64,000 nucleotides of DNA from an uncultured Acidobacteriaceae bacterium (lineage in GTDB: Bacteria; Acidobacteriota; Terriglobia; Terriglobales; Acidobacteriaceae): assembly GCA_963747545.1 (NCBI GenBank), contig CAVVFQ010000008.1:855719-919718 (forward strand). Direction: 5' to 3'. The number at the start of each line of letters is the position of its first letter. Positions within the stretch are counted from its first letter, which is position 1. The translations under genes and the position numbers were made by a program. The notes under the pieces are model-generated. The model was not told the origin of the DNA and did not search any database. It worked only from the letters and a program-made list of their open reading frames with translations. This document shows positions 28,991-35,113 of the stretch, in pieces.

Positions 28991-30271
28991 CTAGGCGCGT
29001 GCTTTACTGGCACCGCGACGCTTTCCGTTGCTCTTCCCGGCAGGCGCGCCCACGGTCTCAAGAGAAGCTTCGACTAGGGGCGCGGGTGCTCGACTGGTCT
29101 GCACCCGACGCTCGTTACGGGGCTGCCGCCAGTTGACTCGCGGCAGCATTACGTTGGGGTCGATGCGGTCGCGATATTTCAATGCCACATTCATCAGCGA
29201 ATCCAAGAGAGAGTCGGAAAGCAGATGCGGTTCCAGCCCGAGTTCGATCAGCTTCGAGTGTTTCGCATTGTAATAGTGCTCCTGCGCCTCGACGCGCGGA
29301 TCGGCGAGGTGCTCGACTTCAATCGTCATGCCCAGTTTTTCCCCGGCAGTTTGCACCATGTGTGCCAACTCCAAAACTGAAAACTGTTCGGTGAACTGGT
29401 TAAAGACCCGGCACTCACCTTGGGCCGCTGGATTCAAACACGCGATCTCGACGCACCGTACGGTGTCGCGAATATCCAGAAATCCACGGGTTTGACCGCC
29501 CTTACCGTACACGGTGAGCGGATGTCCAATGGCTGCCTGAACGCAGAAACGATTGAGCACGGTGCCAAAGACCTCATCGTAGTCGAAGCGATTGATGAGC
29601 GCTTCGCCCATGCAAACTTCATCGGTCATGGTTCCATACACCACGCCCTGGTTGAGGTCGGTGGCGCGCAGTCCCCACGCTTTGCAAGCGAACATGATGT
29701 TGTGGCTGTCGTGCACCTTCGAAAGATGGTAAAAGGAGCCGGGCTGCTTGGGGTACGGTAATGTGTCTCGCCGCCCATTATGCTCGATGGTGATGTAGCC
29801 TTCTTCAATATCAATATTGGGTGTGCCATATTCACCCATGGTGCCGAGCTTGATGAGGTGACAATCGGGTTGAAACTCGCGCAGCGCGAACAGCAGATTG
29901 AGCGTCCCCACGACGTTGTTCACCTGAGTGAACACCGCATGTTTGCGGTCGATCATGGAATAGGGAGCGGCGCGCTGCTCGGCGAAATGGATCACCGCAT
30001 CCGGTGCGAAATCCTGAATGACGGAGGACAGAAAGTCGTACTCTGTAACATCGCCGACGAAGAGCTGGATGGTCTCGCCGGTGAGATCCTGCCAAACGCT
30101 CAGACGCTCCGAAAGCGGGCGGATCGGGGTCAGGGTTTGCACACCGAGTTCGTGGTCCCATTGGCGGCGCGCGAAGTTGTCCGCGATGGCAACCGAATGT
30201 CCTTTCTTAGACAGATATAAAGCAGTCGCCCAACCGCAGTATCCATCGCCTCCCAGCACCGCAACCCTCAT
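28991..30271 (-). CDS. sqdB: UDP-sulfoquinovose synthase (SQD1/SqdB family SDR)
   Basis: Block-by-block match to SQD1 as I recall it: [83 protein letters not shown]. Basic about 45-aa C-terminal tail. Confidence 0.85.
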
Positions 30272-30361
30272 GTCGCCTCCGCGTAGTAAGTTTCTTGGAA
30301 ATTGACCACAAACAGCTTCCGCTATGCCCCGCTTCTTTCAACTGTTAAGGTAACAAACATT

Positions 30362-32233
30362 CTAGAACAAGACGGCTGCCTTGGGCGGTTCGCCGTGAGA
30401 AACGGCAATCGGATCATTTGTCAGAACGACCTTGCCGCCACTCGCCGCAACTAGATTGAGATGCTCCGCGCCCACCAAGGATTCTAGCTGAGGAACCACA
30501 TTCTGGCTGGCGACGATGTAGGAACGCTCCGGCTTAAGCCAGAGATTGGTGAATTGCGAATCGTTTATGAACACATCGGGCACACCGGGAGCGTAGGCGC
30601 CGTATTCCAGATTATTGAAGCGGCCGTTGCGCAGCAGCGCGGTGCGGTTGGTATAAAAAAAGATGGATGAAAATGTGTAGTAGTGGTGATCAACAATCAG
30701 CGTTCCTGGGGGCGATTTCATAATTGCCTCCGCCAGCGGACGCGACGACAGAAAGGGATCGAACACAGCCATGGCAAGGCGGGCGGCGTGGAAGAACAGT
30801 ATCATCATGAATGCCGTGGCTAGAAATGCAGGCTGGGCGGTCAATTTCCAGGTTGCCAACGACCCGATGCAGAAGGCAATCGCGGCCACCAGCAGGGGCG
30901 TCCGAAGATAAGCAAAGGATCCCAGGGTAAGATCCTGCATGTGGCCCAGGGAGAGCGTATAAGCGCCGGGATGGTGGCTGAGCGCCTGTGAAATGTCTCC
31001 CGGGGCAGGCATGTGACGAGTGAGAAAAAACAAAGTCAGCGTGACCAGCCCAACGCTCGCGGCGACCACCGAGAGCACTCGCGTACCGCGCCGTATCCAG
31101 TCACCTTCCGTCTCCATCGCCGAGCCTAAGAGGAGAGCCAGCGCGGGATAACAGGGCATCGAATAATATTCCTGGGTGGTGGAAAAAGTGAAGAAGATCA
31201 GCACAAAGCCCGCCCAGCAGAGCGCCAGAAGGCGGGTTCGGCCGGCGCGGTCGTTGTATTCGGATTTGGGCTTGAAGGAGAGCTTCGCGACCGCTGGAAA
31301 ATACACGCTCCAGGGAAACAGCCACACCAGGTGCAGCAGCCAGAAGTAAAGGCGTGGCACGGTGTTGTAGTCGCGCGGATAGCGCAGATTCAGAAAGCGC
31401 AACAACTGCTCGTTGATGAAGAAAAACCAAAGAAAGCCGTGATATTCCCCCGGCCCGCTGTGGAGTGTGAAGGCGAAATAAGGGGGATTGCGCAGCGTCG
31501 CCAGAATGTGCCAGGGAGCGGCTATGAGCAGGACGACCAGCAGTCCGGTGAAGGGATGCAGCCGTCGCCAAGCCGAGGCAGAAAAAAGCTGGCGGGTGAT
31601 CCCAAGATAGATGGCAATTGCCGCGACCGGAAACAGGACTCCGATCAAGCTCTTTAGCAGCAGACCCAGCCCGAGGTTCACGGCCAGCACGAAGGCCCAA
31701 AACCGTGGATGTGGCTCTTCCTCGTCCAAGGCGCGAAGAAACGCCCACATGGCGAGGGCGACCGTGAAGGTCAGCATGACATCGGGGATCAAGATCCGGG
31801 TAAACAGAAACAGCCCAACGCATGTCGACATGCACAGGCCGGCGTAGAACCCTGCGCGCTTGCCGAACGCCCAAGCGCCAAACGCCATCGTCAACCCGCA
31901 GAGGGCCACGGCGGATAAGGCAATTGGAATCCGCGCGGCCCAGTCATGCGCGCCGAAAACCACATAACTAGCCGCAATCGCCCAGTACACCAGAGGAGCT
32001 TTTTCCAGGTACAGCACGCCATCCAGGCGGGCCGTCACCCAATCGCCCGAAGTCAGCATGTTGCGCGCGATTTGCGCCTGCACTGCGTCCACGTCATCCA
32101 TTAGGGATGGAGGAGAAATAATGCAGCCCAAGTAGACGGCCCCGGCGACCAGCAAAACTCCTAGATATAGGTGCCAGTTTTTTCCCGTATCCAAACGCTC
32201 GTCTCCTGCGGGGCTGCTGCCTGAATCCCCCAT
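30362..32233 (-). CDS. ArnT/PMT-like GT-C glycosyltransferase (family 39/83)
   Basis: LYLEKAPLVYWAIAASYVVFG, WAARIPIALSAVALCGL, 12+ TM segments and a C-terminal periplasmic domain. Start taken at ATG 32233 (or 32269). Overlaps the asnB 3' end. Confidence 0.7.
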   Translation of the reverse strand: MGDSGSSPAGDERLDTGKNWHLYLGVLLVAGAVYLGCIISPPSLMDDVDAVQAQIARNMLTSGDWVTARLDGVLYLEKAPLVYWAIAASYVVFGAHDWAARIPIALSAVALCGLTMAFGAWAFGKRAGFYAGLCMSTCVGLFLFTRILIPDVMLTFTVALAMWAFLRALDEEEPHPRFWAFVLAVNLGLGLLLKSLIGVLFPVAAIAIYLGITRQLFSASAWRRLHPFTGLLVVLLIAAPWHILATLRNPPYFAFTLHSGPGEYHGFLWFFFINEQLLRFLNLRYPRDYNTVPRLYFWLLHLVWLFPWSVYFPAVAKLSFKPKSEYNDRAGRTRLLALCWAGFVLIFFTFSTTQEYYSMPCYPALALLLGSAMETEGDWIRRGTRVLSVVAASVGLVTLTLFFLTRHMPAPGDISQALSHHPGAYTLSLGHMQDLTLGSFAYLRTPLLVAAIAFCIGSLATWKLTAQPAFLATAFMMILFFHAARLAMAVFDPFLSSRPLAEAIMKSPPGTLIVDHHYYTFSSIFFYTNRTALLRNGRFNNLEYGAYAPGVPDVFINDSQFTNLWLKPERSYIVASQNVVPQLESLVGAEHLNLVAASGGKVVLTNDPIAVSHGEPPKAAVLF

Positions 32234-34086: not shown

Positions 34087-34321
34087 GTGCGTGCACCTCT
34101 ATCGCTTCCTGAAATCAGCTTGCAGTTCTCCGGCCAATCGAATCGCACAGGCTTGTGACTCCGCGGAACCAAGGCACGGCGCAAACTGCTGGCTATTTAT
34201 GCTGGATATCAATCGTACCGGTCTTTTTGAGGATGCACAACCCAGATGGGGATTCGCGAGGTGGCGGCGCCATCGGCACGGGAAATCTTCGCCAAGTGTT
34301 CGCTTTCAAGTTGTCCCCACA

Positions 34322-34696
34322 TCACCGTCGCCCAATGATTACTACGGCGACGCCGATGCAGACCAGCAGCACGCCTGCCCACCTCCTTGGTGTGACCTGT
34401 TCGCCGAGAAAGAATTTCCCTCCCACGGCGCCGACACCGTAGCTCAAGGCTGTTACCGGGACCACCACACTGACGTTTTGCCTCGATAGCACCGCGAGCA
34501 GGGAGAAGAATGCAGTTCCCATCAGGCCCAACCCGACCCACATCCACGGAACTCGCAATGCGCGGATGATGACGGCCACGACCGCGACTGGGCTAAAATC
34601 CTTCACTTCGCCCACGGACTTCATGGCACGGGAGACGCAGAGTTCGCCACCGGTCCCCGCGCCAATCACCAGAAGATAGAGGATAAAAACCAGCAT
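34322..34696 (-). CDS. Half-size EamA/DMT membrane protein (ArnE/ArnF-like size and topology)
   Basis: 124 aa with four hydrophobic segments. Start codon abuts the stop of the upstream paralogue. Confidence 0.6.
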   Translation of the reverse strand: MLVFILYLLVIGAGTGGELCVSRAMKSVGEVKDFSPVAVVAVIIRALRVPWMWVGLGLMGTAFFSLLAVLSRQNVSVVVPVTALSYGVGAVGGKFFLGEQVTPRRWAGVLLVCIGVAVVIIGRR

Positions 34697-35113
34697 TTAG
34701 CCGGGCTCCGTGGTACGCGGAGGCGTGTGTCCAACCACCAGAACGCCCAGGCAAATGAGCAGCACTCCCATCCAGCGCAGCGGCGTGACCACTTCACGCA
34801 GCAGGAAGTGAGCCAGCAGGGCCGACATGGCGTAGGCGACCGAAGAGGCTGGTTGCACGTAGCTGTAATCGGCCCACGAGAGCACCAGCATGTTGGCCAC
34901 AAAAAAAACAATGAGGGATCCAATACCCAGCCAGATCGTGCCCGACCTGAGGACGTGGGAAAGGACGTTAATCGCCTCCGTGGGCGTTCCGATGCTGACC
35001 GCGCCGATGCGTTTCATCCCCTTGCCGAGCAGCACGTTGCCCAAGGGTCCAAATACCACCATCAGAAAGATCAGCAGATAGGTTTTGAAGTGCAGACCGG
35101 CGGAAGACTTCAT
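34697..35113 (-). CDS. Half-size EamA/DMT membrane protein (ArnE/ArnF-like size and topology)
   Basis: 138 aa with four hydrophobic segments. GPLGNVLLGKGMK and RWMGVLLICLGVLVV are EamA-like. Confidence 0.6.
   Translation of the reverse strand: MKSSAGLHFKTYLLIFLMVVFGPLGNVLLGKGMKRIGAVSIGTPTEAINVLSHVLRSGTIWLGIGSLIVFFVANMLVLSWADYSYVQPASSVAYAMSALLAHFLLREVVTPLRWMGVLLICLGVLVVGHTPPRTTEPG

Follow-up and report, generated by a model that had tools for sequence, protein, structure and literature searches.

Sulfoquinovose (SQ) is regarded as a product of phototrophs, which make it as sulfoquinovosyl diacylglycerol (SQDG), and of a few archaea. In SQDG synthesis, UDP-sulfoquinovose (UDP-SQ) is consumed by SqdX/SQD2, a glycosyltransferase (GT) of family GT4, or by SqdD of family GT8, and the only non-lipid use of UDP-SQ described to our knowledge is the archaeal Agl3 N-glycan pathway of Sulfolobus, in which a cytoplasmic dolichol-pyrophosphate glycan receives the sugar and is then handed on by the oligosaccharyltransferase AglB. 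Here we describe a UDP-SQ synthase gene, sqdB, and its neighbors in a 64,000-nucleotide stretch of DNA (the window) from an uncultured Acidobacteriaceae bacterium (assembly GCA_963747545.1, contig CAVVFQ010000008.1, positions 855,719 to 919,718 of the forward strand). The locus has its UDP-SQ synthase in common with SQDG synthesis, but the partner enzyme is a glycosyltransferase of family GT21, from which a beta-linked product is expected, and machinery of the periplasmic face of the membrane is attached to it. The Agl3 pathway, in contrast, has no GT21 enzyme, no ArnT-like enzyme of the GT-C fold, no pair of EamA proteins and no AsnB-type amidotransferase, all of which are found here. We propose, as a reading that we hold to be somewhat short of probable, that members of the class Terriglobia (subdivisions 1 and 3) carry an envelope-lipid glycosylation island built around UDP-SQ, in which the GT21 enzyme loads SQ on a membrane lipid.

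The systems that come closest in design are those in which a sugar is loaded on a lipid and used at the opposite face of the membrane. In the Gtr (GtrA/GtrB/Gtr*) and RgtE/RgtA-D systems, the lipid is loaded by a cytoplasmic GT-A enzyme and carried across by a small flippase, after which a GT-C enzyme acts in the periplasm; the Rgt proteins place an anionic sugar, galacturonic acid, on the lipid A and core of Rhizobium. The island follows the same three-part logic, but its GT-A enzyme is not a polyprenyl-phosphate transferase of family PF00535, and no report of SQ in a three-component system of this kind was found in the literature searched. With the Arn system (PmrHFIJKLM), the island shares an ArnT-like GT-C enzyme, a pair of drug/metabolite transporter (DMT) proteins that match ArnE, and the presence of a sugar-nucleotide gene in the cluster. 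However, the sugar nucleotide is UDP-4-deoxy-4-formamido-L-arabinose (UDP-Ara4FN) in the Arn system and UDP-SQ here, the island has a conserved GT-A enzyme of the GT21/HpnI type in the place of ArnC, and the AsnB partner of the island has no counterpart in Arn. No homologs of ArnA, ArnB, or ArnD were found among the annotated open reading frames (ORFs) of the window or among the gene families that recur across related loci.

Two further systems act directly on membrane lipids. The GT21 enzyme of the island is nearest to HpnI of the HpnI-HpnJ-HpnK(-HpnL) system, which leads to bacteriohopanetetrol glucosamine and the cyclitol ether, and HpnI or HpnJ genes are found in some islands. In both cases a putative flippase stands alongside the transferase: in Burkholderiales (Mycetohabitans) the canonical hpnI-hpnJ-hpnK order is followed by the flippase-like hpnL, and in the island this place is held by the EamA pair. 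The island differs in having sqdB as its sugar gene and in lacking HpnK, and we know of no hpn cluster that includes a GT-C or an AsnB gene. The PlcP-Agt/Pgt system, utilized by Alphaproteobacteria under phosphate starvation, has a GT21 homolog with 27 to 28% identity that glycosylates a membrane-lipid hydroxyl; it pairs this enzyme with a phosphoesterase and ordinary UDP-hexoses, and it includes no sqdB, GT-C, flippase pair, or AsnB. The supposition in the initial annotation of the window that no bacterial system of this type had been described held up, as full-text literature searches on sqdB and sulfoquinovose found none, nor any link of either to ArnT-like enzymes, undecaprenyl carriers, lipopolysaccharide (LPS), or bacterial hopanoids. 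In the literature searched, we also found no description of a ceramide-glucosyltransferase-type enzyme paired with a flippase pair and a GT-C enzyme. The parts of the island are of known kinds; their combination is new.

A UDP-sulfoquinovose synthase gene in a conserved gene group

An ORF check placed five genes on the minus strand between 28991 and 35113, in agreement with the initial annotation (Table 1). The last of them, measured at 90 nucleotides (nt) downstream of the GT-C gene (about 90 nt had been noted), encodes a short-chain dehydrogenase/reductase that proved to be a genuine SqdB. It aligned without a gap with 382 residues of SQD1 from Arabidopsis (1QRR), 69% of them identical, for a score of 636 bits, and the active-site residues T145, Y182, H183, and K186 of SQD1 were all identical in this alignment; T145, Y182, and K186, together with His183, are what we take, following the SQD1 structure papers, to be the catalytic residues. 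UDP-glucose 4-epimerases (GalE) reached only about 34 bits, and the next-best family reached 51 bits. The NCBIfam model NF041015 was matched over its full length (1-384 of 384) with 495 bits, which is under its equivalog cut-off of 575, and plant SQD1, as the far stronger match, outweighs this miss. That the protein would make UDP-SQ from UDP-glucose and sulfite is thus strongly supported by its alignment with SQD1. The protein carries a C-terminal extension of about 40 residues (residues ~385-426; window 28991-29120) that is basic, rich in Ala and Gly, and absent from plant SQD1, and the length of this tail differs between loci.

No SqdX/SQD2-like GT4 enzyme had been seen in the window, and we likewise found none among the ORFs scanned, which were not all of those present; the sole GT4 enzyme found was BshA. 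A phmmer search with BshA over the ORFs of the 160 loci described below found no other GT4 enzyme near sqdB, a search in which GT8 was not probed.

Table 1. Genes of the sqdB island and other features of the window, with positions counted from its first nucleotide
Feature	Coordinates	Strand	Basis
sqdB, UDP-sulfoquinovose synthase, 426 amino acids (aa)	28991..30271	-	Match to SQD1, catalytic residues
GT21, HpnI/ceramide-glucosyltransferase-type membrane glycosyltransferase, 391 aa	27779..28954	+	Pfam, NCBIfam, and profile match
ArnT-like GT-C glycosyltransferase, 635 aa	30362..32269	-	PMT_2, ArnT structure match
AsnB-type glutamine amidotransferase, 641 aa, TTG start	32161..34086	-	Asn_synthase, GATase_7, TIGR01536
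EamA2, half-size DMT/EamA membrane protein, second of the pair, 124 aa	34322..34696	-	Pfam EamA, 27.7 bits
EamA1, half-size DMT/EamA membrane protein, first of the pair, 138 aa	34697..35113	-	Pfam EamA, 32.7 bits
Beta-carbonic anhydrase, between the MacB gene and EamA1	35308..35997	-	Pro_CA, 43 bits
MacB/FtsX-type ABC permease, no adjacent ATPase	36043..37275	-	MacB_PCD and FtsX domains
GT2 fused to a GtrA/DPMS transmembrane domain	37389..38648	-	PF00535, 101 bits; PF04138, 58 bits
Further GT-C-like membrane protein, small and of PMT_2 type, 436 aa	23481..24791	+	PMT_2, 28 bits
BshA, bacillithiol glycosyltransferase (GT4)	9354-10505		565 bits against a cut-off of 274; acidobacterial genome

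Related loci were collected in two sets. The first comprised 80 loci centered on SqdB from one-genome-per-species assemblies of Terriglobia, in which SqdB is 73 to 99% identical to the window copy, and the second comprised 80 metagenome loci around GT-C orthologs that are 67 to 89% identical. Together they make up 160 loci (labeled with L numbers) from this one class; many are from metagenome-assembled genomes (MAGs) with occasional frameshifts, and L001 is a MAG locus nearly identical to the window. MAGs of Edaphobacter and Alloacidobacterium are among the carriers of the island (L049, L055). All ORFs of the SqdB-centered loci were clustered without prior assumptions. GT21 was found in 63 of the 80 loci, GT-C in 61, AsnB in 53, and the half-size EamA pair in 48, followed by the MacB-type permease in 29, nearly always adjoining the EamA pair; the next commonest family was found in 10. 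When only the 60 loci with full flanks are considered, GT21 is no more than 10 kb away from sqdB in 50 of them and the EamA pair is present in 38. The reverse test, with the 23 GT-C loci that extend at least 6 kb on either side, gave SqdB in 20, AsnB in 22, GT21 in 17, and the EamA pair in 13.

This grouping is far beyond chance. It occurs in 38 architectures that differ by order and strand, among them SqdB-AsnB-GTC-GT21, an SqdB-GTC-GT21 order whose EamA pair is encoded on the other strand, and, in L062 and L077, all six genes co-directional; AsnB-GT-C-SqdB forms one co-directional unit in most loci. Because only GT21, GT-C, AsnB, EamA, and MacB recur, the module has persisted while its flanks diverged. 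The gene order, whose restriction to this genome would have counted against a functional link, is not unique to it: the gene set is kept across Terriglobia loci through many rearrangements, as seen in both directions of the search. An inherited gene order without functional coupling would be compatible with the origin of all 160 loci in a single class, but the flanks are not conserved (10 of 80 loci for the next family), and strand and order vary while proximity stays, over SqdB identities from 99% down to 73%; we regard this explanation as very improbable. A scan for promoters and terminators between 27.4 and 39.4 kb gave nothing above the shuffled background, and operon structure gets no evidence from it.

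A lipid-type glycosyltransferase convergent with sqdB

The GT21 gene, which was absent from the gene list of the initial annotation, is convergent with sqdB at a distance of 36 nt. Its ORF opens at TTG 27752, and the length given in Table 1 is counted from ATG 27779. The protein matched the Pfam family Glyco_transf_21 (PF13506) with 123 bits, and its sole strong match in NCBIfam was to the HpnI model TIGR03472, with 289 bits, missing the cut-off of 310. By a profile built from the protein, the closest solved structure is that of a ceramide glucosyltransferase, matched over its full length (26qf; residues 24-377 against 26-385, E 6e-31), and no match to ArnC, GtrB, or DPMS was found in NCBIfam or among solved structures. 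The DSD, ADD, and KRLRW motifs are invariant across the GT21 alignment. Identity is 30% to proteobacterial HpnI and 27 to 28% to GT21 proteins of Alphaproteobacteria, and a large protein search with the window copy returned only orthologs at least 83% identical. In a neighbor-joining tree, the sqdB-linked copies (n = 99) form one clade apart from true HpnI paralogs, and those that were scored against the HpnI model reached 260 to 292 bits.

As judged from these matches, GT21 is the sole conserved transferase near sqdB predicted to be able to use a nucleotide sugar. It resembles enzymes that glycosylate lipid hydroxyls and not polyprenyl-phosphate transferases, and a polyprenyl-phosphate acceptor would be without precedent in the GT21 family.

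The alphaproteobacterial relatives of GT21 adjoin genes annotated as UDP-2,3-diacylglucosamine diphosphatase, which we take to be PlcP-type lipid-remodeling phosphoesterases of phosphate-starvation glycolipid operons. This neighborhood is in line with a lipid acceptor for GT21, and it would also fit an explanation in which SqdB and GT21 need no further partner to produce an SQ-glycerolipid that spares phosphate, GT21 standing in for SqdX/SQD2, and in which AsnB, GT-C, and EamA serve a separate envelope modification and are only co-regulated or co-inherited. Consistent with this, SqdB-GT21 occurs without GT-C within 10 kb in 9 of the 60 full-flank loci, some loci have AsnB-GT-C but no GT21, and the window holds GpsA, PlsY, GlpD, and a patatin-like phospholipase. 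However, GT-C adjoins sqdB in 20 of 23 loci, usually on the same strand in an apparent operon, and the association outlives 38 architectures in which other neighbors are lost. In addition, because the GT2/GT21 fold has an inverting mechanism, GT21 would be expected to yield a beta-linked product and not the canonical alpha-SQDG. We therefore consider an SQ-glycerolipid made by these two enzymes alone unlikely. A metallophosphoesterase near GT21 was considered as a PlcP-like partner and dropped, having been seen in 2 loci only.

An ArnT-like GT-C enzyme, an amidotransferase, and an ArnE-like pair

The GT-C enzyme matched Pfam PMT_2 with 65 bits, and its sole solved relative is ArnT of Cupriavidus (5EZM; E 8e-29 over 372 residues, query 39-410). 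Residues D163, E89/K90, and R291 align with D158, E84/K85, and R270 of ArnT, which, following the ArnT structure paper, we take to serve in undecaprenyl-phosphate binding and catalysis; the position of ArnT D55 is occupied by V60, which is flanked by D58, D59, and D61. The score against the ArnT model NF009784 was 91.5 bits, missing the cut-off of 567. The protein thus shares the fold of ArnT and can be called ArnT-like, although not an ArnT ortholog. All GT-C enzymes known to us take lipid-phosphate-linked donors.

The two half-size EamA genes abut, as had been noted, with a gap of zero between 34322-34696 and 34697-35113. Their products are paralogs (hhalign probability, 99.8%), and each matched ArnE of Escherichia coli (EamA1, 96%; EamA2, 91%), whereas hhalign found no match of either half to ArnF. 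Against the ArnE model NF011625, with a cut-off of 92 bits, EamA2 scored 26 bits, its top NCBIfam match (E 7e-6), and EamA1 gave no match. Of the likeness to ArnE/ArnF that had been suggested, the pair architecture and the match to the ArnE profile were borne out; the ArnE cut-off was missed, and ArnF was not matched. The homology to ArnE is accordingly remote and short of family membership.

AsnB has the intact N terminus MCGIVG that had been read in its translation, with the nucleophile Cys2, as well as the PP-loop SGGIDSS. It matched Asn_synthase with 312 bits and GATase_7 with 152 bits, passed the cut-off of 267 for TIGR01536 with 458 bits, and missed that of 817 for TIGR03108 with 522 bits. 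The start of the GT-C gene overlaps the end of asnB, also as first described; the overlap is out of frame and measures 109 nt (32161-32269) when the longest ORF is taken and 73 nt if the second ATG of the GT-C gene serves as the start. An out-of-frame overlap of about 50 to 110 nt recurs in orthologous loci, and the N-terminal peptide of GT-C, MG.D..V.VDE.M, is conserved. Close coupling of the translation of the two genes, or a stretch that codes in two frames, could lie behind this overlap. AsnB keeps its place directly upstream of GT-C in rearranged loci, and the two behave as one unit.

The initial annotation had considered that the amidotransferase might modify SQ. This has no chemical basis, and we rejected it: the sugar has no carboxylate, and adenylation of its sulfonate would, as far as can be inferred, be without precedent. 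Because SQ lacks a carboxylate, AsnB more probably amidates the acceptor, and its substrate is probably a carboxylate found there and not on the sulfosugar.

The ArnT-like and ArnE-like proteins raise the possibility of an Arn-type carrier route, in which UDP-SQ is transferred to undecaprenyl phosphate by GT21 or by an ArnC-type GT2 enzyme, the EamA pair flips the product, and GT-C transfers SQ in the periplasm to an acceptor such as lipid A, the LPS core, a hopanoid glycoside, or protein. The standard three-component design, in which a small flippase pair stands between a GT-A and a GT-C enzyme, is conserved here around sqdB; GT-C keeps the residues of ArnT for undecaprenyl phosphate, the EamA halves match ArnE, and AsnB, GT-C, and SqdB are co-directional in most loci. 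Moreover, L071 harbors an ArnC-type GT2 gene (167 bits to ArnC, full length) between GT-C and sqdB and no GT21 gene within 10 kb, and copies 44 to 46% identical to this GT2 occupy the same position in L115 and L156. On the other hand, ArnC-type GT2 genes are found in these 3 of the 160 loci and are missing from 157, and L115 and L156 hold GT21 as well, so that GT21 and GT2 are not simple substitutes for each other. The relatives of GT21 all glycosylate lipid hydroxyls, GT21 itself has no detectable similarity to ArnC, GtrB, or DPMS, and a route of this type leaves the HpnJ and HpnI genes inside some islands unexplained. Of the Arn-type module first suggested for the window, the ArnT-like GT-C and the ArnE-like pair stand; the route was incomplete because it needs a polyprenyl-phosphate:sugar transferase and none had been named, and the conserved transferase is GT21. 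We consider a carrier route of this type conceivable but on the whole doubtful.

Hopanoid genes inside islands

Additional HpnI-type paralogs are present in the islands of L033, L068, L129, L137, and L139. Their scores of 335 to 359 bits pass the HpnI cut-off of 310, except for the copy of L139, which is just under it at 306 bits; the copies of L129 were not directly scored. A bona fide HpnJ (713 bits) is encoded directly upstream of the EamA pair in L068, L129, L132, and L153 (4 of 160 loci). Since HpnI paralogs and HpnJ occur inside the island in several genomes, hopanoid head-group chemistry is indicated. No HpnK deacetylase was found in the islands. Acidobacteria of subdivisions 1 and 3 have been found to harbor hpnI and hpnJ and to lack the deacetylase gene hpnK (PMC5462960). 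The lack of hpnK would fit an HpnI-like enzyme that utilizes a sugar other than N-acetylglucosamine (GlcNAc). The genes annotated as hpnI in these genomes probably do not encode a GlcNAc transferase, and this affects the gene-based prediction of hopanoid biomarkers.

In L068 (5296-18488), L129, L132, and L153, the EamA pair that the HpnJ gene precedes is a divergent one. Another EamA pair is present in L068 and L129, where two GT21 paralogs come after it in tandem, and the copies of L068 pass the HpnI cut-off.

A proposed route for sulfoquinovose

In the lipid-glycosylation reading that we tentatively favor, SqdB would turn UDP-glucose and sulfite into UDP-SQ, and GT21 would move SQ, with inversion and at the cytoplasmic face, onto the hydroxyl of a membrane lipid. 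The best candidate for the acceptor, given the family of GT21 and the hopanoid genes that some islands include, would be a bacteriohopanepolyol, for example bacteriohopanetetrol (BHT); a glycerol-bound lipid would come second. The ArnE-like EamA heterodimer would then carry the charged, lipid-linked sugar to the periplasmic leaflet. There, the GT-C enzyme, translationally coupled to the cytoplasmic AsnB, would draw on a polyprenyl-phosphate sugar as donor at the periplasmic face and either extend the head group of the flipped SQ-lipid or glycosylate a different acceptor in the envelope. A GT2 enzyme would supply this donor, with undecaprenyl-phosphate-SQ as one possibility, and a gene for such an enzyme is located in the island in few genomes only. 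Extraction of the product, as a step toward its export, may fall to the MacB-type permease. As to the product itself, it is possible, although we would not call it likely, that these bacteria make an SQ-bacteriohopanepolyol, or that their hopanoids or iso-diabolic-acid lipids bear a head group, an oligosaccharide with SQ, that is finished by GT-C in the periplasm.

Several points weigh against this proposal. Its steps past SqdB are drawn solely from homology and synteny. HpnJ or a true HpnI is encoded in only about 7 of the 160 loci, and the core hopanoid genes shc and hpnH lie outside the island. The sqdB-linked GT21 copies are below the HpnI cut-off, at 30% identity, and their acceptor could differ from that of HpnI; an AlphaFold2 model of GT21, made from an alignment of 30 sequences 83 to 96% identical, was unusable, with a pLDDT of 43. 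For L071, L115, and L156, the simplest reading is a donor route through undecaprenyl-phosphate-SQ. A GT-C enzyme that extends a hopanoid glycoside lacks precedent, and AsnB is unexplained under every model. Finally, L108 to L110 hold AsnB-GT-C-SqdB only, and in other loci only SqdB-GT21 is in reach, so that the SqdB-GT21 and AsnB-GT-C halves may be parallel branches instead of one series.

The island nevertheless suggests that a sulfonated lipid or glycoconjugate of the envelope, of a type not yet described, is made, and not the usual plant-type sulfolipid. Terriglobia are among the most abundant bacteria of soil and peat. A conserved sqdB island in this class would add a terrestrial, non-phototrophic source of SQ and a new class of sulfonated envelope molecules, and, if SQ is indeed attached to hopanoids or present in lipid head groups, environmental SQ would come in part from soil bacteria that are abundant and not phototrophic. 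Acidobacterial lipids that resist solvent extraction and are described as "large, very polar" have reportedly been on record since 2011 and 2017, and under the product reading given above the SQ-bearing compounds would be these lipids. In one subdivision 1 strain, the recovery of bacteriohopanepolyols was about 10-fold lower by solvent extraction than by whole-cell treatment, with about 90% left unextracted, and in Acidobacteria of subdivisions 1 and 3 the membrane-spanning iso-diabolic-acid lipids came free only when cells were hydrolyzed directly with acid; the poor extraction of both lipids was attributed by the authors to unknown, large, and very polar head groups (PMC5462960). The island is a concrete genetic candidate that could explain these non-extractable polar lipids, as it is found in the same lineages and would provide, besides a sulfonated sugar, a glycosyltransferase for lipids, a flippase, and an extender that works in the periplasm.

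Accessory and neighboring genes

Accessory genes of the island differ by lineage, as is usual for head-group diversification. A radical SAM/SPASM protein is encoded in 6 loci and a Trm112-fused methyltransferase in 5, and a membrane O-methyltransferase gene directly follows GT-C in 7. The radical SAM/SPASM and methyltransferase genes can be seen at 3470-6718 of L115 and in L010, L020, L030, L089, and L134. Between sqdB and GT21, 10 to 15 loci carry a pair of genes for two oxidoreductases, a DAO-like FAD enzyme and one of the GFO/IDH/MocA type (for example, L031, 11259-13065), and this pair may modify the sugar.

In L106 (10002-12108), sqdB is replaced by an ORF of 275 aa together with a second GT21 paralog (66 to 68% identical), and the locus belongs to a close relative, its GT-C enzyme being 89% identical. 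The 275-aa ORF contains the motifs HVPKAAGNS and FRDPYQQAVSHY, which resemble the 3'-phosphoadenosine 5'-phosphosulfate-binding motifs of sulfotransferases; it had no match in Pfam, NCBIfam, or the PDB, and the idea that it could be a sulfotransferase was not used as evidence.

The GT2 gene with a GtrA/DPMS domain, upstream of the MacB gene in the window, would be a candidate for a strain-specific polyprenyl-phosphate sugar synthase. As a conserved equivalent of ArnC it was rejected, being missing from the nearly identical L001 and from nearly all other loci. Distant GT2 genes, 32 to 34% identical, occupy its position in L089 and L105, which suggests that GT2 genes have been recruited there more than once. 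For the carbonic anhydrase gene there is no room in L001, and it does not recur at the other loci; it is not part of the module. At 3302-5136 of L001, the RR, MacB, and EamA genes run without gaps, and neither the carbonic anhydrase nor the GT2-GtrA gene is present.

The small PMT_2 gene lies beyond a TonB-dependent-like gene. Orthologs were found in 10 of the 160 loci, and in the distant L123 and L149 they stand between GT-C and sqdB or GT21, so that the protein is possibly a peripheral member of the island. The glycerolipid genes mentioned above, for a GlpD-like glycerol-3-phosphate dehydrogenase, the patatin-like phospholipase, GpsA, and PlsY, surround the island at 11512-16058 and 39135-40786; GpsA and PlsY were identified by reading of their translations only.

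Two of the loci, L011 and L066, are labeled Candidatus Deferrimicrobiaceae and Candidatus Binatus, respectively, and their islands are typical of acidobacteria. The gene order of L066 equals that of the acidobacterial L063, with the first two genes at matching coordinates, and for this reason mis-binning is more likely than horizontal transfer as the source of these labels.

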